A stretch of 64,000 nt of DNA from a virus, in IMG/VR virus record IMGVR_UViG_3300028394_003336; one strand, given 5' to 3'. Position numbers and translations under genes: made by a program. Numbering within the stretch: the stretch's first letter is position 1; every line of letters begins with the position of its first letter. A model generated the notes under the pieces. That model had not been told where the DNA came from, ran no database searches, and saw only the letters and a list, made by a program, of their open reading frames with translations. This document shows, piece by piece, positions 50,368 through 64,000 of the stretch.

Positions 50368-50470
50368 TTTAATAATAGGGCTTGTTTCTATTGTAATAAT
50401 AATTTTAGCAATTGCAGGGGGCGCATTTTGGTTGGGAGATAAAATGAATAAAGATGATAGATATAAATAA
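50339..50470 (+). CDS. Small single-TM protein, 43 aa (not in ORF track)
   Basis: MMTILHQVFNLIIGLVSIVIIILAIAGGAFWLGDKMNKDDRYK fills the gap between two genes. Confidence 0.5.
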   Translation: MMTILHQVFNLIIGLVSIVIIILAIAGGAFWLGDKMNKDDRYK

Positions 50471-50639
50471 GATAGTTGAAGGAAGGTATGTAGGAGTTGC
50501 TCCTGAGGGGTTTGTCCTACTTCATGAAAAGACAATTCAAGATTTACAAGATTTTGAAATTTGGAAAGAGTGGAAAAATAAAATTCTTGAATTAGATTTA
50601 AAAAACAGAATTGAGATGGAAGAGTGTAAAAAGTCTTAA
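50454..50639 (+). CDS. Hypothetical protein
   Basis: Operonic short ORF. Confidence 0.6.
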   Translation: MIDINKIVEGRYVGVAPEGFVLLHEKTIQDLQDFEIWKEWKNKILELDLKNRIEMEECKKS

Positions 50640-50650
50640 GTTTCAAAACA

Positions 50651-50725
50651 GGGTCAAGTTGGTGTAGCCATCTGCAGTGGTAAACGGAAGCTAGCTCCTA
50701 GGTAATACCCACCAACCTCTGACCT
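50651..50725 (+). ncRNA. Unassigned structured RNA candidate
   Basis: GC-rich island; GGGTCA/TGACCT and GTTGGTG/CACCAAC stems enclosing small hairpins. Confidence 0.5.
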
Positions 50726-50741
50726 ATAATTTAAAAGCATT

Positions 50742-51131
50742 ATGAGTAAAGTAACAAAAAACCCCACATTATTTGTGGATATAGACGGTACAATTGTGAA
50801 GTATCGTAAATTTAATGAATTAGCCACAGCAGTATTAACACCCATTCAAGATGTAATTGATTACGTAAATAACCATTACAATTCAGGGTCGGTGATAATT
50901 ATAACTACAGCACGTCCTTCAAGTTATGAGTTGATGACCAAACAAGAGCTTGAAACTCTTGGTGTAAAATATCATCAAATTGTTATGGACTGTGGAAGAG
51001 GTACAAGAGTCGTTTTAAACGATATGGACCCTGAAAACCCAATCCAACGGGCTGTTGGAATAAACTTCATTAGAGACGGTGGATTTGAACCAATAGGTGG
51101 AATCCCAGATATTAAATCGTATGAGTTATAA
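50742..51131 (+). CDS. HAD phosphatase (PseT/PNKP phosphatase-like)
   Basis: LFVDIDGT and ITTARP motifs. Confidence 0.75.
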   Translation: MSKVTKNPTLFVDIDGTIVKYRKFNELATAVLTPIQDVIDYVNNHYNSGSVIIITTARPSSYELMTKQELETLGVKYHQIVMDCGRGTRVVLNDMDPENPIQRAVGINFIRDGGFEPIGGIPDIKSYEL

Positions 51132-51483
51132 AGTATCACCAAAAAGACATTTAGCTAAAACAATTAGTTATAGAATTATCAGTACATTAATCGGATTTTT
51201 TGCCATGTGGTGGGCAACAGGAGATATTAGATTTGGAACCGCTTTTGGTTTTATTGAATTAATTTTCAAACCATTTTTATATTACGCCCACGAAAGGGTA
51301 TGGTACAAATGGTTCAAATTTGGATTAGTTGAGGAAAAGAAACCCAAACCAAAAAAAGTTCAATTAAATGAAGTGGAGACTAAAGTCTTAGAAGAAGTTC
51401 AACCTGAACCATTAAGTAAAGAACCAACAAATATAGTTCAACCTACAGGAAAAAAAGTATTAAGTTATTCATCTAATAGATAA
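51121..51483 (+). CDS. DUF2061-like membrane protein
   Basis: RHLAKTISYRI...LYYAHERVW. Confidence 0.8.
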   Translation: MSYKVSPKRHLAKTISYRIISTLIGFFAMWWATGDIRFGTAFGFIELIFKPFLYYAHERVWYKWFKFGLVEEKKPKPKKVQLNEVETKVLEEVQPEPLSKEPTNIVQPTGKKVLSYSSNR

Positions 51484-51505
51484 ACCGAGTTCGCTCGGTT
51501 TTTTT
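51482..51505 (+). terminator. Intrinsic terminator
   Basis: AAACCGAG-TTCG-CTCGGTTTTTTT. Confidence 0.9.
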
Positions 51506-51533
51506 ATTTCAAATTGTTGTATTTATATAACAT

Positions 51534-53492
51534 ATGAGGAGCACAGACATTAAAAAAATACTTGAATCATTTGATAAAATTCTTAATGAGAATAAATCAT
51601 TTGTTAATGAAGCCGCCATTAATTCACCATTAGACCAAACATCTGCTGGTTCAGGATTTGGACAAAGGTGGGGTAAATTGCATAATGGTGTTGATTTGGC
51701 AGCAAATGCTGCGGAAGTTAAAGCGCCTGCTGATGGTGTTGTTGTAACAGTTGCCGCTGACGAATACCCATGTGGTGGTACAATTGTTATTGACCATGCC
51801 GATGGATATAGAACAGGATTTTGTCATTTACAAAAAATAAATGTTACTTCTGGTCAACAAGTTAAACAAGGGGATGTTATTGCAATTAGTGGTGGAGGTG
51901 CAGGTGACCCAGGACGTGGTAGAAGCGACGGAAGACATTTACATTTTACTCTTAAAAAAGATGGTCAATATGTTGACCCAATGGATTATATAAATAAATC
52001 GGGTGTTAATTTAACAGGACCAGTTCCAACATCAAGTTCAACATCAGTTCCAACATCAAGTTCAACGTCAGGTACAACCGCACCAAAAGGAAACTTAGAT
52101 TTTAAAACAAACGATACCACATTCATTAATAATATAGCCAACCCGATTATATCTCAACTTAAATCAAGTGTTGGCATCAAAGAGGAATCAAATAATGTTA
52201 AAAGAATACTTAAGTCATTTGATAAAATTCTTAATGAAAACAAGTCATTTGTTAACGAAGCATCCGCAACAAGTAATGAATTACTTGGTGGAACTCAAGT
52301 AAAAATACCTGCCAGTGGAGCACATGCTGGTCAATCAGGTTGGCAAAGTGGAAACGCTTGGGATATAGCGGCAGCACCAAATACTCCTGTTTATGCAATT
52401 GCCTCAGGTAAGGTAATTACTTTGAAAGATAACGGTACAGATGTTATTGAAACTGAAGGTAAGAGATTATATGGGTACGGATTTACTGTAGATAGTGAAA
52501 ATAACCTTCCTGACGTTTATTATACTCATTTGACAACCGTAAGTGTAAAACAAGGAGATAATATTCAATGTGGACAATTTCTTGGGTATGTAATGAAATC
52601 ACCTAAATCCGTAAATTATGACCATGTACACATTGGAGTTGAAACTGGTCACGAAATTACTGAGTTTTTAAATGCTGATGGTAGTTTAAAATGTGGTGGT
52701 GGAACAATTACTGGTTCGGGTTCCACTTCAATGTCAGGAACAACTACATCAACACCAAAAGCAAATTTAGACTTTAAAACAAACGATGCAACATTTGTAA
52801 ACAATATTGCAGGCCCATTAGTATCCCAACTTCAAGCAGGGGCGGGTATTAAAGAACAAACGACTAAAGGTAAAGAAAGATTTTATTTACAATTCTGTAA
52901 TATTTCACAATTAGCGGTTAAAAACGGACAACAAATAAGTGATGGAACCCTTTTAGGTAAAACCGATACTGATGTTGAAGTTAGTAAATTTGACACCAAT
53001 AGAACCAAAATTAGATTAAAAAAAGGAGATATTAATTTGGGTAAAGATATCAAAGAGTATTTAGGTATTTTAACGATACCAAAGGACTCAAACACAAAAA
53101 TAAAAAGCCCTGTTTCAGGAATCGTAACAACCAAATACAATAGCTCTTGTAAAAATCAAATAACTATTGAATATTATGTTGGTAATGACAAAGTAAAAGA
53201 TAATAAAGGAACAAGAACAAAAGACCCTACATTTTCAGACCCATTAATGGGAGCAATTCTAACCGCACCACTGACCATATTCAAAGACAAATATGATAAA
53301 GATACAGGTGAATTAAAACAAAAAAGGTGGGGATATACTGGTGAAAAAGTTGACCCTTGGGTTAAAGATGCAATTGTTGCACCATTCAAAAAAATCGGAG
53401 ACTTATTTAGAAAAGAAAACAAAGAAGAGGAAGAAAGAAAAAAGAAGAAAGTTTATGAAAATATAGAAAAAATTAAAAAGTTATTAAAATAA
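51534..53492 (+). CDS. Multi-module M23 peptidase (peptidoglycan hydrolase-like) late protein
   Basis: HNGVD...HLHF in module 1; WDI...YYTH...HVH in module 2; late motif at 51520-51527. Confidence 0.85.
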   Translation: MRSTDIKKILESFDKILNENKSFVNEAAINSPLDQTSAGSGFGQRWGKLHNGVDLAANAAEVKAPADGVVVTVAADEYPCGGTIVIDHADGYRTGFCHLQKINVTSGQQVKQGDVIAISGGGAGDPGRGRSDGRHLHFTLKKDGQYVDPMDYINKSGVNLTGPVPTSSSTSVPTSSSTSGTTAPKGNLDFKTNDTTFINNIANPIISQLKSSVGIKEESNNVKRILKSFDKILNENKSFVNEASATSNELLGGTQVKIPASGAHAGQSGWQSGNAWDIAAAPNTPVYAIASGKVITLKDNGTDVIETEGKRLYGYGFTVDSENNLPDVYYTHLTTVSVKQGDNIQCGQFLGYVMKSPKSVNYDHVHIGVETGHEITEFLNADGSLKCGGGTITGSGSTSMSGTTTSTPKANLDFKTNDATFVNNIAGPLVSQLQAGAGIKEQTTKGKERFYLQFCNISQLAVKNGQQISDGTLLGKTDTDVEVSKFDTNRTKIRLKKGDINLGKDIKEYLGILTIPKDSNTKIKSPVSGIVTTKYNSSCKNQITIEYYVGNDKVKDNKGTRTKDPTFSDPLMGAILTAPLTIFKDKYDKDTGELKQKRWGYTGEKVDPWVKDAIVAPFKKIGDLFRKENKEEEERKKKKVYENIEKIKKLLK

Positions 53493-53524
53493 AAAAACCC
53501 ACCAATTGGTGGGTTAATTTTTTT
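53491..53524. terminator. Terminator between convergent units
   Basis: AACCCACC-AATT-GGTGGGTT flanked by A and T tracts. Confidence 0.75.
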
Positions 53525-53537
53525 ACAGAAAGTTATA

Positions 53538-53717
53538 TTATTTAACTTCTTCTGCCTTAGGAGTTTCAGCTTTTGCTGGGTCTACAGAAATAACTGTAGA
53601 ATCTACTTTAGTTGAATCAGCTACAACAGCAGTTGAATCAGTTTTTACTTCAGTTGATGTTCCTGTTCCGCAAGATGCCAATGCAATGATTGACAAGATA
53701 GCTAGGATTTTTTTCAT
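53538..53717 (-). CDS. Small lipoprotein, 59 aa, with three D-S-T motifs (not in ORF track)
   Basis: MKKILAILSIIALAS-CGTGTSTEVKTDSTAVVADSTKVDSTVISVDPAKAETPKAEEVK; late motif at 53759-53766. Confidence 0.8.
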   Translation of the reverse strand: MKKILAILSIIALASCGTGTSTEVKTDSTAVVADSTKVDSTVISVDPAKAETPKAEEVK

Positions 53718-53812
53718 GTTCTTTTTTTTTTAGGTTAATGTTTAATAACTTATAAGACTATAAATATATAAAAACTTATCTAATTAGTCAATTTATAGGT
53801 TAAATTATTTTG

Positions 53813-53900
53813 CGGAGAGTGCTGGATTTGAACCAGCGGTACCCTTTAGGAGTACGACAGTTTAGCAAACTATTGGATTAAACCTCTCTCCCAACTCTCC
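53813..53900 (-). tRNA. tRNA-Ser(GCT)
   Basis: GGAGAGT/ACTCTCC acceptor, loop TT-GCT-AA, long variable arm. Confidence 0.9.
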
Positions 53901-53904
53901 ATTG

Positions 53905-53978
53905 TTGGAGTAGGTGGACTCGAACCACCGACATTCACCGTATCAGGATGACGCTCTAACCAACTGAGCTATACTCCA
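53905..53978 (-). tRNA. tRNA-Ile(GAT)
   Basis: Loop CT-GAT-AC; GGTTCGAGTCC T-arm. Confidence 0.92.
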
Positions 53979-53986
53979 ATAAAATA

Positions 53987-54103
53987 AGGTAGAAGCACCC
54001 AAAAGGGGTTTGGCCTCGGGTTACATCACGTATAGGAGCCCTGTGCTCCAACCCCGATATTGTGCGACGGCCGCATCAGTTTCTACTGAATCCTTCTCTA
54101 CCT
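53987..54103 (-). ncRNA. Unassigned structured RNA A in the tRNA array
   Basis: AGGTAG/CTACCT closing stem; GGCC/GGCC, TCGGG/CCCGA and GGAGC/GCTCC helices. Confidence 0.6.
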
Positions 54104-54108
54104 CATTG

Positions 54109-54180
54109 TGTGACTAGAGAGAATCGAACTCTCACATGAAGCGCCACAAGCTTCCGCCCTACCATTAGGCTATAGCCACC
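54109..54180 (-). tRNA. tRNA-His(GTG)
   Basis: GAAGC-TT-GTG-GC-GCTTC; encoded G-1. Confidence 0.9.
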
Positions 54181-54185
54181 ATGTG

Positions 54186-54257
54186 TTGCGGTGAGAAGAA
54201 TTGAACTTCTGACGACTTGGATATGAATCAAGTGTTCTACCACTGAACTACACCGCA
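54186..54257 (-). tRNA. tRNA-Met(CAT)
   Basis: TGCGGTG/CACCGCA acceptor, loop TT-CAT-AT; initiator versus elongator unresolved. Confidence 0.8.
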
Positions 54258-54263
54258 ATTTTG

Positions 54264-54335
54264 AGGTCCCATAGGGATTCGAACCCCAACTCTTTTCGTC
54301 CGTAGCGAAATGTTTTTCCATTAAACTATGGAACC
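54264..54335 (-). tRNA. tRNA-Arg(ACG)
   Basis: TTTCG-CT-ACG-GA-CGAAA. Confidence 0.9.
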
Positions 54336-54339
54336 GAAG

Positions 54340-54410
54340 TTATCCCCTAAGGATTCGAACCTTAAATAATTGGACCAAAACCAATTGTGTTACCGTTACA
54401 CCAGAGGATA
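54340..54410 (-). tRNA. tRNA-Gln(TTG)
   Basis: ATTGG-TT-TTG-GT-CCAAT; U1-A72 pair. Confidence 0.9.
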
Positions 54411-54416
54411 AAATTG

Positions 54417-54490
54417 TGGACCCTCACGGGCTCGAACCGTGGACCTAATGATTATGAGTCATTTGCTCTAACCGACTGAGCTAAGGGTCC
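54417..54490 (-). tRNA. tRNA-Ile2(CAT, lysidine type)
   Basis: GGACCCTTAGCTCAG...GA-CT-CAT-AA-TC body resembles bacterial Ile2 tRNAs. Confidence 0.8.
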
Positions 54491-54492
54491 CA

Positions 54493-54597
54493 AAAACCTA
54501 CCATATGAATGTTTTATCCCCTTACGGGCCACGGCCATTAAGTGCGTCACTTTCATTCATCGGCCATCACACGGTTTCACCGCCTGAGGTAAGTTTT
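54493..54597 (-). ncRNA. Unassigned structured RNA B in the tRNA array
   Basis: AAAACTTACC/GGTAGGTTTT closing stem; CGGT-GAA-ACCG, ATGAATG/CATTCAT and CCC-GTAA-GGG helices. Confidence 0.55.
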
Positions 54598-54598
54598 G

Positions 54599-54680
54599 TG
54601 GGAGTAGCTGGACTCGAACCAACGAACTCAAAAGAGGGGACATTTACAGTGTCCTGCCATTGCCACTAGGCAATACTCCC
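54599..54680 (-). tRNA. tRNA-Tyr(GTA)
   Basis: GGACA-CT-GTA-AA-TGTCC; variable arm. Confidence 0.9.
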
Positions 54681-54686
54681 AAAAAA

Positions 54687-54825
54687 CAGGAAAGGAGAAG
54701 ATGGTCGAGTGGACAACTCCTTTTATGATTGGCATTACTAACGTTGGTTTCAACTCCGATACAGTCGGCCAATGCTTTTTGAGCTCCACCAACAGGCTAA
54801 CCTGTATCATTCCCCAATCAACCTC
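54687..54825 (-). ncRNA. Unassigned structured RNA C (possible double pseudoknot)
   Basis: TGATTGG/CCAATCA, ACAGG/CCTGT, CCGA/TCGG, GTTG/CAAC and AAAGGAG/CTCCTTT helices. Confidence 0.6.
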
Positions 54826-54827
54826 TG

Positions 54828-54900
54828 CACGCATGTCAGGACTCGAACCTGAAACTCCTAGTTTTGGAGACTAGTGCTCTACCAATTGAGCTACACACGC
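54828..54900 (-). tRNA. tRNA-Trp(CCA)
   Basis: CTAGT-CT-CCA-AA-ACTAG; G73. Confidence 0.9.
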
Positions 54901-54901
54901 A

Positions 54902-55021
54902 TTATTTTTTTATAATTCCAGCCTTAACAAGAAACTTACGAGCAGATTTCTTATTCTTACAGGCTTTCTTCGTCACCTTTTTAATTGCCTTGACCATTTG
55001 GTCTATTTGTTTTTTTCTCAT
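54902..55021 (-). CDS. Small basic peptide, 39 aa (not in ORF track)
   Basis: MRKKQIDQMVKAIKKVTKKACKNKKSARKFLVKAGIIKK exactly fills the Cys-Trp tRNA spacer. Confidence 0.55.
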   Translation of the reverse strand: MRKKQIDQMVKAIKKVTKKACKNKKSARKFLVKAGIIKK

Positions 55022-55022
55022 G

Positions 55023-55094
55023 AGGTCAGTACAGGATTCGAACCTGTGTAAATAGTTTTGCAGACTATCGCCTAAGCCACTCGGCCAACTGACC
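55023..55094 (-). tRNA. tRNA-Cys(GCA)
   Basis: ATAGT-CT-GCA-AA-ACTAT; U73. Confidence 0.92.
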
Positions 55095-55099
55095 TTATT

Positions 55100-55432
55100 T
55101 TAATGGGTTCCATTTGTTAATGAAATCCCATGTCTTATTCCTGTGATAAAATCTTCAATCTCACCCTCAGTCATATTTTTATATTTACTCCCAACCATAT
55201 TCCCAATTTCATTACCACAATCACTTAAATCACCTTCATAATCCATTGAGCGACTATATTCTAATAAACTGAATGCAATCCAAGACAAGTCATCACTATT
55301 AAATGTTCTTTCCATATTTTTAATGGATTCTACCAGTTGTTTTCCAAACCATTCTTTCCATTCCTCAAAGGTAAACTTTGAATCAGGATTATCTAAAAGA
55401 AAGTTTTTATATTGTGTTTCTAATGTTGCCAT
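55100..55432 (-). CDS. Hypothetical protein
   Basis: ORF inside the tRNA operon. Confidence 0.7.
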   Translation of the reverse strand: MATLETQYKNFLLDNPDSKFTFEEWKEWFGKQLVESIKNMERTFNSDDLSWIAFSLLEYSRSMDYEGDLSDCGNEIGNMVGSKYKNMTEGEIEDFITGIRHGISLTNGTH

Positions 55433-55457
55433 AATTTTAATTATTTATTATATTTTT

Positions 55458-55691
55458 CTAATGAACCATGTCAAAACTGATGTTATTGTTTGACATTAGT
55501 TCACGGAGTTCTTCCCTTATTTCTTGATAAGCATCATACTTATCTTTTGGTAAATCATCAGACGCGTATTTTGTCTTAGACCTCAAAGACTGGTCCAATT
55601 CCCATAGTACACTCCAAAATTTGAGACCACTATTTGCCAAATCAAAATCTTGTTGGTCATCAGGTAAGTTAAATTCAAGTATTGCTTTCAT
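55458..55691 (-). CDS. Hypothetical phage protein
   Basis: MKAILEFNLPDD start. Confidence 0.7.
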   Translation of the reverse strand: MKAILEFNLPDDQQDFDLANSGLKFWSVLWELDQSLRSKTKYASDDLPKDKYDAYQEIREELRELMSNNNISFDMVH

Positions 55692-55706
55692 AATATACAT
55701 TTTTTG

Positions 55707-55779
55707 TGACCCCGCCGAGACTCGAACTCGGGACTCCTAAATTAAAAGTTTAGTGCTCTACCAACTGAGCTACAAGGTC
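55707..55779 (-). tRNA. tRNA-Lys(TTT)
   Basis: CTAAA-CT-TTT-AA-TTTAG. Confidence 0.92.
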
Positions 55780-55784
55780 TGTTG

Positions 55785-55857
55785 TGGTAACGGTCAGAAT
55801 CGAACTGACGACACCTTGCTCTTCAGGCAAGTGCTCTACCAACTGAGCTACGTCACC
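55785..55857 (-). tRNA. tRNA-Phe(GAA)
   Basis: CTTGC-CT-GAA-GA-GCAAG. Confidence 0.92.
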
Positions 55858-55858
55858 A

Positions 55859-56074
55859 TTAATTCACTTCAATATCTTCCAAAGGTACATCTTCTCCTTG
55901 AGTATGCCTATAAACTGTGTTAAAAAACTCTCCTAACAATCTATAATCCTCAGGAATCATATGACAAAAATCAAATGCAGGAATTGCATCATGAATCTTA
56001 CCTTGAACCACTTTATCTCTTTTTTCATCTGGTTTGTACTCAAACACAATATGACCTCTAAAAATATATTTCAT
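55859..56074 (-). CDS. Hypothetical protein
   Basis: 71-aa ORF between the Val and Phe tRNAs. Confidence 0.65.
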   Translation of the reverse strand: MKYIFRGHIVFEYKPDEKRDKVVQGKIHDAIPAFDFCHMIPEDYRLLGEFFNTVYRHTQGEDVPLEDIEVN

Positions 56075-56075
56075 A

Positions 56076-56136
56076 ACTTCCGATTTTGTCTTGTTTTTAC
56101 TTCCGACTTTGGACGGGTTTTACTTCCGACTTTGTC
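56076..56136. repeat. Three direct repeats ACTTCCGA(T/C)TTTG with 23-nt period
   Basis: Copies start at 56076, 56099 and 56122. Confidence 0.85.
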
Positions 56137-56144
56137 ATTTTTTG

Positions 56145-56217
56145 TAGTCCCTGTAGGAATCGAACCTACGACACCTTGGATGTAAACCAAGTGCTCTTCC
56201 AACTGAGCTAAAGGACT
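56145..56217 (-). tRNA. tRNA-Val(TAC)
   Basis: CTTGG-TT-TAC-AT-CCAAG. Confidence 0.92.
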
Positions 56218-56223
56218 ATAAAT

Positions 56224-56310
56224 GATGACACCATTGACTCTCTCAATGCGTTTACGGCAGGGATTAGTAACCTTATCCTTTCGGAATTCGTCCTCTCTTA
56301 TGCCATCATC
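56224..56310 (-). ncRNA. Unassigned structured RNA D (tRNA-sized)
   Basis: GATGATG/TGTCATC closing stem; TCC-GAAA-GGA and CATTGA/TCAATG hairpins. Confidence 0.45.
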
Positions 56311-56313
56311 TTG

Positions 56314-56385
56314 TACTCGGTACGGGAATCGAACCCGTCTTTTCAGGATGAAAACCTGATGACCTAACCGATAGTCGAACCGAGC
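56314..56385 (-). tRNA. tRNA-Glu(TTC)
   Basis: TCAGG-TT-TTC-AT-CCTGA. Confidence 0.92.
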
Positions 56386-56408
56386 ATTTAGCAAATTTAC
56401 AACCAATA

Positions 56409-56419
56409 TTTCAAAGAAC
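56409..56419 (-). promoter_or_regulatory. boxA-like antitermination motif GTTCTTTGAAA
   Basis: Resembles rrn boxA; a near-identical GTTCTTTAAAA precedes the tmRNA (46076-46086). Confidence 0.5.
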
Positions 56420-56420
56420 C

Positions 56421-56462
56421 AAAAATAAAAAAACCCCGAACTTCATTTCTGTCGTTCAGGGT
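56421..56462 (-). terminator. Attenuator terminator 1
   Basis: ACCCUGAAC/GUUCGGGGU 9-bp stem followed by a U-tract. Confidence 0.85.
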
Positions 56463-56499
56463 CTGTATATATAACTCTCTTCAGGAATTACCAAATCAT

Positions 56500-56574
56500 T
56501 TACACGTCTGAACTACAAGGCATAATCTCATACCAACAAATTTCTTGTTGTTTACTAAAGACTATATGACGCAT
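56500..56574 (-). CDS. Leader peptide 1, MRHIVFSKQQEICWYEIMPCSSDV (in-frame upstream ATG at 56586 adds MNTT)
   Basis: Follows TATTTATA (56592-56599); codons match the 14 downstream tRNAs; 3' part is complementary to the terminator 5' arm. Confidence 0.88.
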   Translation of the reverse strand: MRHIVFSKQQEICWYEIMPCSSDV

Positions 56575-56626
56575 TGTAGTGTTCATGTTATTATAAATAT
56601 ATACCTTTTTATTAAAGTATCAAGTG

Positions 56627-56707
56627 TACCCCAAGTCGGACTCGAACCGACACGACTTACGTCACAAGTTCCTAAGACTTGAGTGTCTACCATTTCACCA
56701 TCGGGGC
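56627..56707 (-). tRNA. tRNA-Leu(TAG)
   Basis: CAAGT-CT-TAG-GA-ACTTG; variable arm. Confidence 0.9.
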
Positions 56708-56710
56708 ATA

Positions 56711-56801
56711 ATCACATCAGACAGGCATTCTACTTCCAGCGCCGAGAAATTGTATCTTATTTAACCCATCTCACCGCTGTATGGGTACCTGAAGATATGA
56801 C
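56711..56801 (-). ncRNA. Unassigned structured RNA E (pseudoknot or switch)
   Basis: GTCATATC/GATGTGAT, CAGGTA/TGCCTG and ACCCAT/ATGGGT helices; loop CAGCG is complementary to downstream CGCTG. Confidence 0.6.
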
Positions 56802-56805
56802 CTTG

Positions 56806-56879
56806 TGATTCGGAAAGGATTCGAACCTTTGACCCCAAACTTAGAAGGTTTGTGCTCTATCCAGCTGAGCTACCGAACC
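56806..56879 (-). tRNA. tRNA-Arg(TCT)
   Basis: CAAAC-CT-TCT-AA-GTTTG; TATCTTTG promoter just upstream (56889-56896). Confidence 0.92.
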
Positions 56880-56907
56880 AATATATTACAAAGATAATAA
56901 AAAAAAG

Positions 56908-57651
56908 TTACTCTGCAAAACTTTCTTCGTAGATGGTATCGTGAGCGTTTTCCTCTACATTATAGGTGTGATTTAATTCAATCGTCATTTCATGGAAGTT
57001 AAATATAAATTCGCCATCTGAACCTTCATTAATTTCCCACCCACCAAAGTTATTTTCAAGTTGTCTATAACACCAATCCTCTATTGAAGTAGGTACTCCA
57101 TCACCGTTTTCTTCAAAACTACTTTCAATATATCCTGAGTCACCTGAACCATTATATTTTACAGTTAATATGCCGTCATTTGGAACCTCAAGGTCATCAA
57201 GAACTCCATCTTTTTCCCATTCCTCAAAAATATCTTTTCCTTCTTCACTATCCCATTCAACACTATTACCATCACCTCTTTGATAAAATGTCCACCAATG
57301 ATTTACTGATATTTCTGATTTTTCACAATCAATATCAAAATCAATTCTTTCGTAATTTAAATCTTCTTCATCAGGTACTTGGAATATTCCATTTTCTTGA
57401 ATATAATCTCCTATTTTTTTCAATATTGGTACTAAACCATCAGGTACTTCGGCACTATAATTGTTTGAAAAATGACTACCCTCATGTTCCCAATCTATGT
57501 CATTAAAATCAAAATCGGCGCTATTGTCAATATCCATCTCAATACTTCCGTCTTGCATTCCAAGTGATGCGAGGTATCTACAAACTCTTCTAAGGTATTG
57601 TTTATCCTCAGGGGTTAATATATTAAATGAATTCACTTTTTTTCTTTTCAT
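56908..57651 (-). CDS. DUF6878-like acidic protein
   Basis: YNGSGDSGYIE...GWEINEGSDG motif. Confidence 0.6.
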   Translation of the reverse strand: MKRKKVNSFNILTPEDKQYLRRVCRYLASLGMQDGSIEMDIDNSADFDFNDIDWEHEGSHFSNNYSAEVPDGLVPILKKIGDYIQENGIFQVPDEEDLNYERIDFDIDCEKSEISVNHWWTFYQRGDGNSVEWDSEEGKDIFEEWEKDGVLDDLEVPNDGILTVKYNGSGDSGYIESSFEENGDGVPTSIEDWCYRQLENNFGGWEINEGSDGEFIFNFHEMTIELNHTYNVEENAHDTIYEESFAE

Positions 57652-57662
57652 AATAATAAATA

Positions 57663-58010
57663 TTAGTCTTCAAGTTTAAGTGTTCTGGTCATCCATTGAG
57701 GTCTTTGGTTGGTTGATATGTTATTAACCCATTCTTTAGCTGACGGAATATAGTTGTTACAATCTTCTTTAACATGTTGTTCTCCAACATATCTGGTGTA
57801 AACTATTTTACCATCACTATTAAGGAATTCAGTACCAAAACGTTTTTCCATCTCAAAAATACCTTCACTATGATGTCTAAACATTCTGTGTAAAGAATCT
57901 CCAAACCATCCTTTGGTCTCATCTAACCATTCATGTAAATGGATGTAATCTTCTGGTTTTCCACCAAATTTTTTGGCGGATGATTTTGCATGTACATTAG
58001 GGTGTGCCAT
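57663..58010 (-). CDS. DUF6915-like protein
   Basis: MAHPNVHAKSSAKKFGG...HEWLDETK...HRMFRHHSEG...GEQHVKEDC. Confidence 0.7.
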   Translation of the reverse strand: MAHPNVHAKSSAKKFGGKPEDYIHLHEWLDETKGWFGDSLHRMFRHHSEGIFEMEKRFGTEFLNSDGKIVYTRYVGEQHVKEDCNNYIPSAKEWVNNISTNQRPQWMTRTLKLED

Positions 58011-58596
58011 TTTTCCAAGAGTTTTTGTCGTATCCAAATAATTGAAAATCTTTTTCTAAAAAGTTATAAACGTAGTTTGACAATGAATTATTATAATATT
58101 CTTGCCAAGGGTTCCTTTTTCCAAATTCAGTTAAATACCCGTTATTTACAATGTTATCTTGAATTATAATTTCTAATTCTTCAGACATATTTTCTTTTAT
58201 AAACCATAAATTTCTAATATCCTCTTCAAGAAATTCTTGTCTTATTAAATAATCAGGAAATCTATTACAAGAAGAATATATTTTTGATAAATTAATCTGA
58301 TAATTTAAAGTTTGAATTGGGAACTCAACCTCTTCTCGCAATTTTTTGATTACCCAATTCCTAAAATCATTTGGTTCTCTTTTTTGATGATGACAATATA
58401 TGTGATAGATTGAAACTAATCTAGAATACGGATTTCTAATATTAGACACACAATAATATTGTTCATGTAATTTGTCTTCTAAAAACCTGTGTGATAAATC
58501 TGTAAAGTCTAAATGTCGCATTATAATGTCGCATGAACGAGTTGCCGCCCTCATAGGTGTAAACCAAAAAACTTTTAAATTATCTGAATATGGCAT
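57997..58596 (-). CDS. Sulfotransferase family 2-like protein
   Basis: PMRAATRS, IRNPYSRLVSIY and KDFQLFGY motifs; paralog of 49115-49732. Confidence 0.7.
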   Translation of the reverse strand: MPYSDNLKVFWFTPMRAATRSCDIIMRHLDFTDLSHRFLEDKLHEQYYCVSNIRNPYSRLVSIYHIYCHHQKREPNDFRNWVIKKLREEVEFPIQTLNYQINLSKIYSSCNRFPDYLIRQEFLEEDIRNLWFIKENMSEELEIIIQDNIVNNGYLTEFGKRNPWQEYYNNSLSNYVYNFLEKDFQLFGYDKNSWKNGTP

Positions 58597-58829
58597 TAAA
58601 ATATTTTTGTTTGTCTCCTTCTAACAATTTCCGCTTCTTTGTACCATCTAATCCAAGTTAAAGATACATCAATTGGTGCCAATAACCAAGCCATCACCAT
58701 AACCATAATGGTGTCTAATTCAGGTGAACCACCTGTGGGGTCATCACTATACCTGTTATTAAGGTTTTTAAACAACTGATAAAAACAATATACTACACAT
58801 ACAAGGTAGTATCCAATAAAAATACTCAT
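58596..58829 (-). CDS. Small membrane protein
   Basis: Start MSIFIGYY; the upstream extension would overlap tRNA-Thr. Confidence 0.65.
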   Translation of the reverse strand: MSIFIGYYLVCVVYCFYQLFKNLNNRYSDDPTGGSPELDTIMVMVMAWLLAPIDVSLTWIRWYKEAEIVRRRQTKIF

Positions 58830-58843
58830 AAATATAAATTTTG

Positions 58844-58916
58844 AGCCTCCTGTCGGAATCGAACCAACGACATTATCATTACAAATGATACGCTCTACCA
58901 GCTGAGCTAAGGAGGC
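58844..58916 (-). tRNA. tRNA-Thr(TGT)
   Basis: TATCA-TT-TGT-AA-TGATA. Confidence 0.92.
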
Positions 58917-58968
58917 AATTTGTGGGTATATGTTCATCACATATTCATGGGTTCCCACACACCCCTTG

Positions 58969-59042
58969 AGCGGATTATCGGGCTCGAACCGACCCTATTT
59001 CACATTGGAAGTGTGATGCCATACCAACTAGGCGAAATCCGC
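58969..59042 (-). tRNA. tRNA-Gly(TCC)
   Basis: TCACA-CT-TCC-AA-TGTGA; GCG start, U73. Confidence 0.92.
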
Positions 59043-59048
59043 TTATTG

Positions 59049-59120
59049 AGCAGTAGAGAGGAATCGGACCTCCGTCTCCACCTTGGCAAGGTGAAGTAAT
59101 AACCATTATACGACTACTGC
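59049..59120 (-). tRNA. tRNA-Gly(GCC)
   Basis: TCACC-TT-GCC-AA-GGTGG; variant T-loop TCCGATT. Confidence 0.85.
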
Positions 59121-59175
59121 GAGAGTGTAGTGGAAGATATCATTCCTGTGGTTACTACACGTTTTACCCACTTTG

Positions 59176-59249
59176 CGGACCGTACGGGACTCGAACCCGT
59201 GAACTCTACCGTGACAGGGTAGCATGATAACCAACTTCACCAACAATCC
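59176..59249 (-). tRNA. tRNA-Asp(GTC)
   Basis: CTACC-CT-GTC-AC-GGTAG; G73. Confidence 0.92.
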
Positions 59250-59255
59250 TTTTTG

Positions 59256-59327
59256 CGTCTCCTCCTGGGTTCAAACCAGGGACTTATTCGTTAACAGCGA
59301 ATCGCTCTATCGCTGAGCTAAGGAGAC
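59256..59327 (-). tRNA. tRNA-Asn(GTT)
   Basis: ATTCG-CT-GTT-AA-CGAAT; G73; variant T-loop TTTGAAC. Confidence 0.85.
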
Positions 59328-59440
59328 TCTTACAAATAACCACAAATTCCAACCTACTATCACTGGAGACAAAAATACAAATATTATTCCTAAAAACAAA
59401 GTCGTAATACTCCAAAATGGATGTTTTTCTTTTTTCATAG

Positions 59441-59513
59441 TAGAGTAGACAGGGTTCGAACCTGCACGCACTTGCTCCCAAAGCAAGGGACCTACCTATT
59501 GGTCAACTACTCT
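59441..59513 (-). tRNA. tRNA-Pro(TGG)
   Basis: CTTGC-TT-TGG-GA-GCAAG; AGAGTAG/CTACTCT acceptor. Confidence 0.88.
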
Positions 59514-59525
59514 ATATCCAATAAT

Positions 59526-59559
59526 AAAAAAACCCTGAACTTTCAAGATTCAGGGTTTT
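59526..59559 (-). terminator. Attenuator terminator 2
   Basis: AAAACCCUGAAU/GUUCAGGGUUUU stem and U7 tract, about 12 nt before tRNA-Pro. Confidence 0.88.
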
Positions 59560-59581
59560 AATATTTGGCTTCATTTTTTAA

Positions 59582-59677
59582 TTATCCAACATCAGTATCT
59601 GAATCTAAGCATAGAGTGCCCGTATCACCATTAGGTGTTGTCGGCGTGTTCCCTGTATTTAAATTCAAATGTCTCAT
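59582..59677 (-). CDS. Leader peptide 2, MRHLNLNTGNTPTTPNGDTGTLCLDSDTDVG
   Basis: Follows TATTTATA (59691-59698); N/T/G/P/D core matches the downstream tRNAs; AGAUUCAG pairs with the terminator 5' arm. Confidence 0.88.
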   Translation of the reverse strand: MRHLNLNTGNTPTTPNGDTGTLCLDSDTDVG

Positions 59678-59712
59678 AGTGTAATAATATTATAAATATG
59701 TTCCAAAGTCAA

Positions 59713-60450
59713 TTAATTTCCATTACCTCTTAAGTAGTAATCATTTGTTGTGTTTAAATTAGCTCTATTACCTGTGTCAGGATATGTTGTATATAAACGA
59801 TAAACTCCTTTTGGTATTCTATTTCCTTGATAGTTGAAAGTATATGAATACATCACACTGTTCATGTTATATGACCTTCCTTGAACGGTTCCGTTGGTTA
59901 CCAATGTGTTTCCTATCTTCTCATATGTATAAATTGTTTTCTGTCTTTTTGTATCATTAGACATTGCAGAAACAGGAATTAAAATGTTAATCCATCCAAA
60001 ACCCGATACAGTATTTTTTGGTATTTTAACGGTTGTAAAATTATATGCAATTTTAGTATTTCCAAAAGAATCTGTACCTCCACTAACTTGTGGAATTTCA
60101 GCTTCAATTACTGATGGTAATCTTCCATCATACCAATGTGGCATATCAATGTAATAAAGTAAGTTGTGTTGAACTGACGCGCCAGGTCCAACGAAGAAAC
60201 CTAAAAAACGTGTTTTATTTAACGATTGAGTTACCGTATTAAGATAATTTGCAACCATTACATATTTTGTATACGGCTCAACAAAGATGTAAGCTTTATT
60301 ATTTGTTTCAGGTGTTGATGTTGATGCAACCGATGCGGTGGCATTAACTTGAGTTAAGGTTTCTTTTTTATCAATAATAATATCCTGTTTGGTACAAGAG
60401 ATTGCTAATACGGTTACCATCACCGCAAGGAAAAGTTGTTTAAGTTTCAT
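59713..60450 (-). CDS. Putative lipoprotein
   Basis: MKLKQLFLAVMVTVLAIS-C lipobox; TATCTTTG upstream. Confidence 0.75.
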   Translation of the reverse strand: MKLKQLFLAVMVTVLAISCTKQDIIIDKKETLTQVNATASVASTSTPETNNKAYIFVEPYTKYVMVANYLNTVTQSLNKTRFLGFFVGPGASVQHNLLYYIDMPHWYDGRLPSVIEAEIPQVSGGTDSFGNTKIAYNFTTVKIPKNTVSGFGWINILIPVSAMSNDTKRQKTIYTYEKIGNTLVTNGTVQGRSYNMNSVMYSYTFNYQGNRIPKGVYRLYTTYPDTGNRANLNTTNDYYLRGNGN

Positions 60451-60523
60451 AGTATTTGTTTTAATATACCACAAAGATAATAATTAATTTGATTCTACAA
60501 AATTTTTGTTGATATTTATTATT

Positions 60524-60625
60524 ATGATAGACAGAAATAAACAGTGTCTTTTGGGAACAACGACAACGTATGAGAACGTAGATGTAATGAGAATTAAACA
60601 ATCTCGAACCATAAACTATTGCTAA
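60524..60625 (+). CDS. Candidate leader peptide 3, MIDRNKQCLLGTTTTYENVDVMRIKQSRTINYC
   Basis: TATTTAT at 60513-60519, 33-codon ORF, then a strong terminator before the HNH gene. Confidence 0.55.
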   Translation: MIDRNKQCLLGTTTTYENVDVMRIKQSRTINYC

Positions 60626-60639
60626 ATCTGTAGTATATC

Positions 60640-60671
60640 AAAAGGGGACGAGAACATTCGTCCCCTTTTTT
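60640..60671 (+). terminator. Intrinsic terminator upstream of the HNH gene
   Basis: AAAAGGGGACGA-GAACAT-TCGTCCCCTTTTTT. Confidence 0.85.
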
Positions 60672-60713
60672 GTTTCTATTAAAAAATAAACTATATTTGT
60701 AAAAATTACTATA

Positions 60714-61202
60714 ATGAGTAACGTGTTGGTTTTGAATTACGATTATACCCCACTAAATGTGACGAGTATTAGGCGGGGATTTGTACTTGTGGACAAGGGT
60801 AAAGCTGAGATTATAAAATCAGATGAGAATCCTATTTTTACAGGGTATAAGACATTTGTACGCCCGTTAATCATCAGATTATTGAATTATATCAAACACA
60901 AAACAAGAACAATTAGAGCTAGCAGACCAAGAATTTATAAACGTGACCATTATCAATGTGTGTATTGTGGGTCTAACAAAGACTTAACATTAGACCACGT
61001 TATACCCAAATCAAGAGGTGGTGGAAACGAATGGACCAATCTTGTCACATCTTGTTTTAAATGTAATTTAAGGAAGGGAAATAAAACCCCTGAAGAGGCG
61101 AAATTAACAATGACGCAAAAACCTTTTGTTCCAACTTTGGTAGGAGAAAATCAAAAATTACAAAGTGTTTGGAATGATTATCAAAAATCCTTTTTTTCGT
61201 AA
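60714..61202 (+). CDS. HNH endonuclease (McrA-like)
   Basis: RDHYQCVYCG...TLDHVIPKSRGG...WTNLVTSCFKCN. Confidence 0.92.
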   Translation: MSNVLVLNYDYTPLNVTSIRRGFVLVDKGKAEIIKSDENPIFTGYKTFVRPLIIRLLNYIKHKTRTIRASRPRIYKRDHYQCVYCGSNKDLTLDHVIPKSRGGGNEWTNLVTSCFKCNLRKGNKTPEEAKLTMTQKPFVPTLVGENQKLQSVWNDYQKSFFS

Positions 61203-61226
61203 AAAAAATTATTAAATTTAAATAAC

Positions 61227-61499
61227 ATGAAAATAGAAACTACATTAAAAGCTGGGTTGGTATCATCAATTTTAACATTATTATGGTCAATTGTAATGTG
61301 GAATAATAGTATTATGACTGTAAAAGTTCAAAGTAATAAAATTGATAGTTTAACAAAATTATCAGATAGTCTTTACGACAAATCATTTGAAAATTTTATT
61401 GAAGCTGGTAGATACGAAGCTGCTTTGGAGATTTACAAAGAAAAAAATCCAAAGGCTGTTAATGAGATAGAAGAAATAAAAAGTACACAAACTGAATAA
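61227..61499 (+). CDS. Hypothetical membrane-anchored protein
   Basis: N-terminal hydrophobic helix. Confidence 0.65.
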   Translation: MKIETTLKAGLVSSILTLLWSIVMWNNSIMTVKVQSNKIDSLTKLSDSLYDKSFENFIEAGRYEAALEIYKEKNPKAVNEIEEIKSTQTE

Positions 61500-61500
61500 A

Positions 61501-61785
61501 ATGCAAGAAAATCATTTAAAACCAAACGAAGAAGGGTACCAAGACGGCCCTCAAGACTTAATAAACGCATCTCTAATATTCGCAAGAGCATTGGGACTAA
61601 TCCTTAAAGAAAACGAAGGAATTGTTGTTGATGTTGTTGGAGAAATTAAATTAGGAGAAGAAGTTAAAAAAGTTATTGTTTTCAAATTTGAAAACCAAGT
61701 TCACATCTACAAATGTGATGATGACATTCCTGAAGGAAACGCTGTTAATATGGATACAAGCGCAACGAAGGAAGAACAAGAATAA
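61501..61785 (+). CDS. Hypothetical protein
   Basis: Operonic ORF. Confidence 0.7.
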   Translation: MQENHLKPNEEGYQDGPQDLINASLIFARALGLILKENEGIVVDVVGEIKLGEEVKKVIVFKFENQVHIYKCDDDIPEGNAVNMDTSATKEEQE

Positions 61786-61806
61786 TTTTTTAAAAATATC
61801 AAAATA

Positions 61807-63480
61807 ATGAGGACATTAGGATTTTCTGTTGGCCATGATAAGGGCGCAGTTATAATTGAAAACGGAAAAGTTGCCGTGGGTATTACCCAAGAAAGACTTT
61901 CAAGAATAAAACACGACGGTGCATATCAAGGAGGAACAATACCTTATGATTCAATTAATTATTGTTTAGATTATTTGGGAATAACTTATAAAGAGATTGA
62001 TTTATTTGTTTATAGTACAACCGAAATGGTTGATGATATAGACGAACAAATGAGAAAACATTTCAAAGTTGATTTAACAAATAAAACGAAATTTTTACCT
62101 CACCATTTAGCTCACGCATATTCGTCTTTCTTTAGCTCAGGTTTTGACGAAGCTGTGGTTGTTGTTGCCGACGCGTCTGGTAGTATTTTGAGTCATCTCA
62201 ATAAACTACCACTTTGGTATAAAGATGTCTATGAAGAAAAAATAGAAACTCGTCAAGATTGGAGTGAAGGAATTTCAATATATCACATTAAGAAAAATGA
62301 ATATACTGAAGTTTACAAAAAATGGATTAAATTTCCAGTTCCTTTGGAAACTGAAGATGGTGTTTCCGTTGGTACCGTATATTCTGAAGGTTCATTACAA
62401 TTAATTTTTGAACCAAACCATAATACGTGGCCAGCAGGTAAACTTATGGGTCTTGCGTCTTATGCCGACCAAGATATTGTAAACGAAGCACCTTATTTTA
62501 TACTTGAAAAAGACGGAGATATTTTTATCCCTAACAAAAGAATTTATCCAAGAGTTAATTACAATTCAGATTTTTTCTCAAGAGCTTGTGTTGCAGGAAT
62601 TTATCAAAGAGAACAAGAGAGAGTTTCTTTAATGCTTGCAGAAAAGGCAAAAACACTAACTGATTCTAAAAATATATGTGTTGCTGGTGGTTCATTCTTG
62701 AACTGTAATTCAAATGAAAAAATATTAAATTCAGGATTATTTGAAGACTGCTTTTTCCTTCCTCCCGCAGATGATAGCGGTATCCCATTGGGATGTGCGT
62801 GGTACGCTTATCAACAACTTATTGATATTGATATTGTTGAACCTTTAAACCCATATATTGGAAAACCATATTCCGACAAAGAAATAAATTCAACATTAAA
62901 TGAATTTCCTCATTTAGTTTTTGAAAAATATGATGACTTTGAAAAATTAATTGAAGATGTTTCTTATTGGTTAACACAAAACAGAGTAATTGGTTGGTTC
63001 CAAGGAGGTTCTGAAATTGGTCCAAGAGCATTAGGTAATCGTTCAATACTTGCATCACCAATTAAGTCTTGGATGACGGGACATATCAATTCAGATATTA
63101 AGAAAAGAGAATGGTATAGACCATTTGCTCCAGCTGTTTTGTTTGAACATCAATCAGAAATTTTTGAATCAGACGTTTACTCACCATACATGTTGGTAAC
63201 TACAACAGTAAAAGAAGAATGGAGAAATAAAATCCCCGCAGTAACTCACATAGATTATTCCGCGAGACACCAATCAGTAACTGAAAAAAATAATTTCAGG
63301 TTTTATTCGTTAATTAAAAAATTCCATAAAAAGACGGGAGTACCAGTATTACTCAACACAAGTTTTAATGGTCCAAGAGAACCAATGGTAGAAACACCCA
63401 GAGATGCCATAAAAAGTTTTATTGAGAATGGATTAGATTTCTTAGTATTAAATAACGTTTTAATTACAAAGACAACATGA
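61807..63480 (+). CDS. Carbamoyltransferase, CmcH/NodU family
   Basis: HD...ERLSRIKH, HHLAHA, GKLMGLA, GPRALGNRS, RPFAP and LNTSFN motifs. Confidence 0.93.
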   Translation: MRTLGFSVGHDKGAVIIENGKVAVGITQERLSRIKHDGAYQGGTIPYDSINYCLDYLGITYKEIDLFVYSTTEMVDDIDEQMRKHFKVDLTNKTKFLPHHLAHAYSSFFSSGFDEAVVVVADASGSILSHLNKLPLWYKDVYEEKIETRQDWSEGISIYHIKKNEYTEVYKKWIKFPVPLETEDGVSVGTVYSEGSLQLIFEPNHNTWPAGKLMGLASYADQDIVNEAPYFILEKDGDIFIPNKRIYPRVNYNSDFFSRACVAGIYQREQERVSLMLAEKAKTLTDSKNICVAGGSFLNCNSNEKILNSGLFEDCFFLPPADDSGIPLGCAWYAYQQLIDIDIVEPLNPYIGKPYSDKEINSTLNEFPHLVFEKYDDFEKLIEDVSYWLTQNRVIGWFQGGSEIGPRALGNRSILASPIKSWMTGHINSDIKKREWYRPFAPAVLFEHQSEIFESDVYSPYMLVTTTVKEEWRNKIPAVTHIDYSARHQSVTEKNNFRFYSLIKKFHKKTGVPVLLNTSFNGPREPMVETPRDAIKSFIENGLDFLVLNNVLITKTT

Positions 63481-64000
63481 GTTCAATTTATGGTTTTTTT
63501 GGTGGGTCTCATAGTCCAGCAACATCACTTGTAATTGATGGTGAAATTGTTTGTTGTATTGAAGAAGAAAGAATCACCCGTATTAAAGCTGGAGATAACT
63601 TTGATGCAGTTGCAGAACAATCATCAAAAGTTGTGGAAGACTATTGTGATTTAAAGATATTAGACTCTGACCATAGGGTATTTGTTGAACCCCTAACCGA
63701 TAGATTTGCGAACCAAATTACAAACAACAATTACGAAAGAGTAAGTCATCACGACGCTCATTGTTATGGTTCCTATTTTACAAGTGGAATGGACGGAAAA
63801 GTTTTAACTATTTCCTATGATGGTGGTGGAGATATGTCGGTTATGAAAGTCTATATGTGTGAAGATGGTAAAATGAACTTATTATACAGTTACGATATGT
63901 GTAACACAGGAAGTTTGGCACATCTTTGGGCTTTCAGTACAAATGGTATAATGGGATATACCTCAGCTTTTGAAGGTGTGTGGAAAATGTGTAAAGATGA
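63477..64000 (+). CDS. Second CmcH/NodU carbamoyltransferase (3'-partial)
   Basis: MSSIYGFFGGSHSP...IEEERITRIK...HHDAH...YDGGGD; ATGA overlap; runs off the window. Confidence 0.85.
   Translation, partial: MSSIYGFFGGSHSPATSLVIDGEIVCCIEEERITRIKAGDNFDAVAEQSSKVVEDYCDLKILDSDHRVFVEPLTDRFANQITNNNYERVSHHDAHCYGSYFTSGMDGKVLTISYDGGGDMSVMKVYMCEDGKMNLLYSYDMCNTGSLAHLWAFSTNGIMGYTSAFEGVWKMCKD

Follow-up and report, generated by a model that had tools for sequence, protein, structure and literature searches.

A predicted ribosome-stalling transcription attenuator in front of the tRNA genes of a T4-like jumbo phage

The window analysed here, meaning the whole stretch of 64,000 nucleotides, comes from an AT-rich T4-like phage with PHROGs matches for the major head, portal and terminase proteins. 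Judged from its sequence, the phage is a T4-like jumbo phage with Bacteroidota-type signals, and a close relative of 317 kb is rated complete. Boxes of the form TAnnTTTG, the consensus of the Bacteroidota −7 box (PMC6847099), precede genes and tRNAs in the window, GGAG is absent upstream of its 64 genes, and an A is present at −3 in 34 of the 64. Together with distant capsid kin, these signals point to a Bacteroidota host. The nearest cultured phages by capsid (~41%) are Flavobacterium phage immuto, which has four tRNAs with neither terminator nor leader ahead of them, and Microcystis phage Mel-JY01, which has one tRNA. A blastn search for a similar leader in cultured phages found none.

The window carries 22 tRNA genes on the minus strand between 53812 and 59513. 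The Pro to Thr genes at the head of this array are preceded by a short leader ORF and an intrinsic terminator, and the features considered here are the following:

59713-60450, minus strand: gene for a 245-aa protein of unassigned family; it lacks its own terminator and has a host-type box TATCTTTG at 60479
59691-59698, minus strand: TATTTATA, putative late-type phage promoter element, with TTGACT at 59712-59707
59582-59677, minus strand: leader ORF of 31 codons with A at −3; putative sensing run at codons 7-21 (59659-59615)
59659-59670, minus strand: segment 1 (codons 3-7), predicted to form a 12-bp hairpin (1:2) with 59608-59597 in ribosome-free RNA
59586-59606, minus strand: segment 2, of which 59606-59599 can pair with the 5' arm of the terminator
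59526-59559, minus strand: intrinsic terminator (segments 3 and 4 with U-tract; hairpin 59559-59529, end of U-tract 59526)
59519-59526, minus strand: degenerate Bacteroidota −7 box TATTATTG, one mismatch
59440-59513, minus strand: tRNA-Pro(TGG)
59255-59327, minus strand: tRNA-Asn(GTT)
59175-59249, minus strand: tRNA-Asp(GTC)
59048-59120, minus strand: tRNA-Gly(GCC)
58968-59042, minus strand: tRNA-Gly(TCC)
58843-58916, minus strand: tRNA-Thr(TGT)
56626-56879, minus strand: tRNA-Arg(TCT) and tRNA-Leu(TAG), with their own host-type box TATCTTTG at 56896-56889
56500-56586, minus strand: sister leader (attenuator 1), in front of a 14-tRNA Glu...Ser block

On rechecking, the coordinates in the preliminary description of this DNA were all correct (promoter element, ORF, terminator and tRNA order). 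tRNA-Pro starts at 59513, 12 nt beyond the end of the terminator U-tract. The genes downstream of the terminator are tRNAs and small ORFs (DUF6878, DUF6915, a weak sulfotransferase match and unassigned ones). No minus-strand terminator was called between 59529 and the tRNA-Arg(TCT)/tRNA-Leu(TAG) pair, which is probably the distal end of the Pro...Thr read-through unit.

Several other features of the region were observed. A sulfotransferase-family gene lies within the tRNA region (57997-58596, minus strand; Pfam E 9e-6), and a Nol-like carbamoyltransferase gene lies beside it (61807-63480, plus strand). A hydrophobic ORF of 43 codons between tRNA-Pro and tRNA-Asn (59438-59307, minus strand), with zero matches in a Pfam search, overlaps the first 21 nt of tRNA-Asn. 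The usual tRNA-Pro end pair is C1-G72; the window tRNA-Pro (59440-59513) begins with A, giving A1-U72, and in relatives this position is occupied by tRNA-Pro genes of at least three sequence types. The window has no tRNA-Ala, and tRNA-Leu(TAA) is missing at 56880-56908 (minus strand) and present in loci L001 and L109, whose neighbour protein is 92-97% identical. Between tRNA-Arg(TCT) and tRNA-Leu(TAG), a structured non-coding spacer (56710-56803, minus strand; closing stem z ~-4 against mononucleotide shuffles) without an Rfam match recurs in 34 fetched loci, with best matches 88-99% identical, and is a candidate small RNA. GC-rich inter-tRNA spacers on the minus strand, also without Rfam matches, lie at 54685-54825, which recurs in 37 loci, and at 56220-56311, 54495-54596 and 53982-54105, which are found in 2-5 loci and give more stable folds than shuffled sequences (z -2.7 to -3.6).

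Codons 7-21 of the leader encode Asn, Thr, Gly, Pro and Asp alone, the set of the downstream tRNAs, confirming the observation that first drew attention to the locus. These five amino acids account for 29.4% of the codons in window genes, giving a probability of 1.2e-7 for a run of at least 15 within 30 codons. A run of 9 is the longest in 58 real window genes and was not surpassed by any of 200,000 shuffled leaders, and among all 15,504 five-amino-acid sets, the downstream-tRNA set alone yields a run of 15. A chance origin of the run was rejected on these statistics (~1e-7).

To place the unit among its relatives, viral sequences were searched with a pattern made of the antiterminator seed and the terminator only, without any tRNA information. 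The pattern found 57 viral stretches, which together with the window reduce to 40 distinct units; tRNA genes follow directly in 39 of these. In bacterial genomes the same pattern gave 26 matches, none of which (0/26) lies directly before a tRNA. Some of the bacterial matches (L087, L089, L092, L097, L103, L104 and L106), which are clostridial, stand upstream of genes with RibD-looking N-termini and are presumably FMN-riboswitch expression platforms. An initial pattern, built from the promoter element and a Met-Arg-His start, returned mostly unrelated matches and was dropped. A second sampling started from a 247-aa neighbour protein and took blocks with enough upstream DNA, one rearranged locus being set aside; the attenuator unit is present in 25 of 30 comparable Pro/Asn-Thr blocks (near-duplicates included), and the other 5 have no leader and no terminator, at least 3 of them with a host-type box. 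In all, 39 distinct homologous leaders of the Pro/Asn family were collected.

An A at −3 is found in 82 of 86 leaders, and of the 49 single-base changes that separate nearest-neighbour leaders, 27 are synonymous, where 29% would be expected (p = 1e-4); this excess suggests that the leader ORF is translated. A Pfam search with the leader peptide gave no match. Six of the 39 leaders have a different reading frame across the antiterminator segment yet keep the segment itself, suggesting that the RNA element matters and not the peptide tail.

The codon content of the leaders follows the tRNA block behind them. In the 39 Pro/Asn-family cores, 96% of 569 codons specify Thr, Gly, Asn, Asp, Pro, Leu, Ala or Arg, and the blocks of relatives often include Ala(TGC) and run on to Leu(TAA), Arg(TCT) and Leu(TAG). 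The match of Pro/Asn leaders is 0.88 to their own block versus 0.05 to the Glu/Val block, and that of Glu/Val leaders 0.84 to their own versus 0.05 to the other (backgrounds 0.37 and 0.46), bearing out the earlier proposal that the leader cores mirror separate tRNA clusters. A third family precedes a Pro-Pro-Lys-Cys block (Pro, Ala and Leu with Lys, Cys, Trp and others) and is matched at 0.94. In L139 and L141, Leu(TAA)-Arg(TCT)-Leu(TAG) is preceded by a fourth leader, which has 22 codons, mostly TTA, CTA, CTT and AGA, and the core of the Pro/Asn leader of L141 has no Arg codon. Arg is encoded by AGA in 27 of 27 cases in homologous cores, where AGA and TTA are common. The link to tRNA-Arg(TCT) and the Leu tRNAs, initially regarded as weak, is strengthened by this AGA usage and by the separate Leu/Arg leader of some relatives. 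ACC, CCC and GCC never occur in homologous cores, in line with the U34 anticodons of the block, and the Pro and Thr codons are skewed to CCG and ACG, which are rare in the phage.

The match at the level of single tRNAs is less uniform. Of the suggestion that both Gly isoacceptors are probed, the part on GGA/GGG and tRNA-Gly(TCC) finds some support, these codons being present in 31/31 units with the tRNA versus 1/5 without it, a difference that reflects a single lineage change; the part on GGT/GGC and tRNA-Gly(GCC) finds none, as GGT/GGC are kept in all 16 units without that tRNA. Ala codons are also present without tRNA-Ala in 3 units. Raw Fisher tests give co-occurrence for Ala (19/21 vs 3/15), Gly(TCC) (31/31 vs 1/5) and Pro (34/34 vs 0/2), with a Pro-less unit lacking any Pro codon and 4 of 5 Gly(TCC)-less units lacking GGA/GGG. 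These tests are not counted as proof because the independent contrasts are too few: on the tree of the neighbour protein, Ala gives 2 concordant, 0 discordant and 4 neutral pairs and Gly(TCC) one change, and the covariation of tRNA and codon gain and loss is not significant once the tree is taken into account.

Attenuator 1 shows the same correspondence, with 16 of its 17 core codons scored as read by its own block; the exception, GTC, would need wider wobble by Val-TAC. The present unit had been described as an independent second copy of this architecture, but the common TTCAG/CCCTGAA switch and its spacing make the two look homologous. Two unit-1 leaders of one lineage (L045 and L063), before a Glu/Cys block, contain three Asn core codons and are accompanied by an extra tRNA-Asn. 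After terminator 1 (56419-56380, minus strand), a boxA-like GTTCTTTGA sits in the spacer of a complete Bacteroidota promoter of the form TTTG-N20-TAAATTTG; it lies upstream of the promoter start and could therefore act solely on read-through RNA from leader 1. A boxA was looked for in unit 2 of the window and not found.

Folding models are consistent with a switch between alternative structures. The 8-nt complementarity between 59606-59599 and 59553-59546 is real, as the preliminary description held, and is modest when taken alone (p = 0.013), so that its weight comes from conservation rather than from its own probability. The predicted antiterminator is larger than these 8 bp, since an inner helix pairs 59594-59586 (segment 2) with 59568-59559, and a 1:2 hairpin is also predicted. 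Predicted energies are -13.0 kcal/mol for the antiterminator and -14.6 kcal/mol for the terminator. In the unconstrained minimum-free-energy fold, codons 3-7 pair with 59608-59597 and the terminator also forms; without a ribosome the 1:2 hairpin has a modelled probability of 0.85 in the window leader, and it is predicted to dominate in only 15 of the 39 homologues. Six outer antiterminator pairs are kept in 18 of 18 distinct variants, five of them being partly fixed by the search pattern. At outer-helix positions 6-8, 36 of 54 pairs are Watson-Crick against 28.9 after permutation (p = 0.01, kinship ignored), and the inner helix is predicted in all 32 variants (median z -1.4).

The effect of stalling was modelled by masking the ribosome footprint codon by codon on nascent RNA without the 3' arm of the terminator, with three footprints. 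In the window leader the antiterminator is predicted to form with the A site on codons 2-21 and to be gone from codon 22 to the stop codon; the edge moves to codon 22 if the RNA behind the ribosome is held unpaired, and a dip appears at codons 16-17, where the 1:2 hairpin re-forms, if that RNA may pair. The end of the modelled stall window, at codons 21/22, thus coincides with the end of the codon run. Codons 3, 4 and 6 (CAT, TTG and TTA) also lie inside the window of stalling and have no cognate tRNA in the block. Across the family, the antiterminator is predicted during a stall in 39 of 39 leaders, with a median probability of 0 at the stop codon, and 88-90% of residues inside the modelled window versus 37-39% after it are cognate to the block (39 leaders). 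The antiterminator is also predicted without any ribosome in 24 of the 39 leaders. Once the RNA is full-length, the model always favours the terminator, and the switch would therefore have to be kinetic, as in classical attenuators.

The TATTTATA element is a putative promoter, a reading for which the support is positional. Its count in the window is not enriched (16 versus 10.3). Of the 64 window genes, 17 have TATTTAT in the 60 nt ahead of them and 5 have it in the reverse orientation; the same orientation bias disfavours a T4-type TATAAATA on the opposite strand, which was considered and rejected. The element is present upstream of 39 of 39 homologous leaders, with TTGAY in 28 of 39. TTGAY also stands ~16-17 nt upstream of TATATT/TATTTATA before both leaders and before the gene that follows the tRNA array (59712-59691, 56623-56592 and 53791-53759, minus strand), possibly representing a bipartite phage promoter class. 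A literature search on TATTTATA-type promoters found no paper, most subscription journals being outside its scope. In addition, the upstream 245-aa gene has no terminator of its own, and its transcript would also enter the attenuator.

The statement that there is no room for another promoter before tRNA-Pro was too strong. The box TATTATTG is correctly placed there, covering −12 to −5 relative to a start that would lie 1 nt ahead of tRNA-Pro. Its one departure from TAnnTTTG is at T-8, a position nearly invariant in the −7 boxes of F. johnsoniae (PMC6847099), and the box is probably weak or dead. Between the terminator and the first tRNA, a Bacteroidota −7 box is found in 28 of the 39 Pro/Asn-family leaders, as TAnnTT(T/C)G, and in 37 of 37 Glu/Val units; in unit 1 of the window it is accompanied by TTTG 20 nt upstream. 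The box changes state at least 6 times on the tree. In most relatives the tRNAs can thus probably be made without read-through. In six relatives (L126, L129, L141, L143, L147 and L131), only 9-12 nt without a box separate the hairpin from tRNA-Pro, leaving read-through as the sole visible route to this gene. The simplest reading of these sequences is a two-tier supply, basal from a host-type promoter where one is present and conditional from the attenuator, which may often act as a boost on the basal promoter and not as the sole gate. On this reading, a transcription start beyond the terminator would in itself be compatible with the attenuator, contrary to what had been assumed at the outset. 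In the window, where the internal promoter is degenerate, the tRNA block probably depends mostly on read-through.

Taken together, these results favour, at a probability of roughly 85%, a ribosome-stalling transcription attenuator of the classical type whose output is the phage's own tRNA genes. This core idea of the preliminary description passed computational tests of conservation, codon-meaning selection, block specificity and stall window. In the proposed mechanism, RNA polymerase would start at the TATTTATA element or arrive from the upstream gene, and a ribosome would translate the 31-codon leader behind it. With fast reading of the Thr, Asn, Gly, Pro and Asp codons, the ribosome would reach the stop codon and cover segment 2, the terminator would form, and the transcript would end 12 nt before tRNA-Pro. 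Slow reading of any matched codon would stall the ribosome within codons 2-21/22, where it would cover segment 1 and leave segment 2 free to capture the 5' arm of the terminator, so that the tRNA block is transcribed. The newly made tRNAs would then relieve the stall, closing a negative feedback loop. The output of tRNAs and the isoacceptor-specific codons suggest that the relevant signal would be a loss of usable tRNA, by depletion or cleavage during infection, and not amino-acid starvation, although the switch itself cannot tell the two apart. We also lean slightly towards a broader view, that banks of attenuators in jumbo phages of Bacteroidota hosts sense the pool of usable tRNA and switch on only the block that is needed, with sensing partly at the level of isoacceptors (AGA versus CGT, GGR, and TTA/CTA).

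A real attenuator might instead serve as a general gauge of translation speed or coupling, or as a sensor of amino-acid starvation, with a looser codon match than a checklist implies. This is improbable, and it has several observations on its side: the retention of GGY without Gly(GCC) and of Ala codons without tRNA-Ala, the lack of significant covariation after tree correction, the skew of Pro and Thr codons to phage-rare CCG and ACG, and the ribosome-free antiterminator in 24 of 39 leaders, in which a block of translation would also give read-through. A general gauge, however, has no need for nearly disjoint leader codon sets that each match their own block (0.88 versus 0.05), and it leaves unexplained both the use of AGA in the Arg(TCT) unit versus CGT in the Arg(ACG) unit and the TTA/CTA/AGA leader before Leu(TAA)-Arg(TCT)-Leu(TAG). 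As for starvation, extra tRNA would not cure a shortage of amino acids.

It is less probable still that the ORF is a gene for a small functional peptide or an sRNA with a constitutive terminator, the tRNAs being transcribed from a host-type promoter just after it. The internal box in 28 of 39 relatives and its one-mismatch form in the window, the selection on amino-acid meaning, and the five relatives with a tRNA block and no leader, at least three of them with the box, would fit such an arrangement. Several observations are left unaccounted for: the block match seen in four leader families, the conserved complement of the terminator arm, the frame changes in the tail that spare the RNA element, and the six relatives without room for a box. 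Moreover, the peptide has no Pfam match. A T-box-like tRNA-binding or other ligand riboswitch, with an incidental ORF, would likewise place terminator/antiterminator alternatives upstream of translation-related genes, but its probability is close to negligible: no Rfam riboswitch or T-box match was found up to E = 1 in 50000-64000, on which ground T-box identity was rejected, translation is indicated by the open frame, A(-3) and the excess of synonymous changes, and a T-box reads one specifier codon whereas the leader run has 15. The stalling attenuator thus remains our preferred reading.

Classical attenuators combine a leader ORF with control codons, alternative 1:2, 2:3 and 3:4 hairpins and an intrinsic terminator, with read-through on stalling. 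The phage unit shares with this class a leader ORF, control codons, a terminator, a conserved and mutually exclusive antiterminator and, in the model, the stall logic, with a 1:2 hairpin that varies between relatives. It resembles the multivalent leaders thrL (Thr/Ile) and ilvL of ilvGMEDA (Ile/Leu/Val), as well as trpL, hisL and pheL, in its control-codon leader ORF and terminator, and differs from them in that its output is tRNA genes and not enzymes. Unlike classical leaders, the phage leader samples five to eight amino acids, each through one to six codons, without long homopolymer runs; the tRNA set is divided among parallel units, and the attenuator is often added to an internal basal promoter. 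The pheM leader of pheST and the trpS2 leader are similar in their ribosome-stalling feedback on charged-tRNA supply, but they control a charging enzyme for one amino acid, whereas the phage unit would control several tRNAs at once. An attenuator of a biosynthetic or synthetase operon (the trpL, thrL and pheM class) was considered and set aside, as tRNA genes and small ORFs lie downstream. T-box riboswitches share tRNA-dependent antitermination of translation-related genes; they bind uncharged tRNA directly, with one specifier codon and without translation. The his leader has been described as a gauge of translation speed (PMC11805395), known leaders react not only to amino-acid supply but also to how efficiently tRNAs decode, tRNA modification included (10.64898/2026.09.09.750475), and leader-peptide attenuation has been reported in Flavobacterium psychrophilum (PMC9723704). 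A literature search for attenuation of phage tRNA genes or tRNA operons, T-box regulation of tRNA operons included, found no paper, again with most subscription journals outside its scope.

Why phages carry tRNA genes is a decades-old question, with codon compensation and rescue from tRNA loss as the competing answers (PMC10264068). Phage tRNAs rescue infection when host tRNAs are cut (PMC10264068, PMC11555353, PMC11464382), and the array described here could likewise rescue translation after tRNA loss, in the manner of phage tRNAs, those of T5-like phages among them, that serve as counter-defence against tRNA-cleaving systems (retron-Eco7/Ec78, PrrC and PARIS). In one of these studies a strong phage promoter is needed for the rescue, and the paper makes no mention of attenuation (PMC11555353); in contrast, expression of the window block appears to be conditional on decoding speed. 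If the proposed mechanism is true, the tRNAs would be made only when their codons are read slowly, that is, they would be kept for conditional rescue, and attenuation would extend from enzymes to the tRNA genes themselves as a direct feedback loop. The leaders would then be compact multi-codon sensors of decoding speed that list which tRNAs each phage lineage monitors, and banks of such tRNA-pool sensors would provide these phages with an inducible defence against anticodon nucleases or the depletion of host tRNAs.
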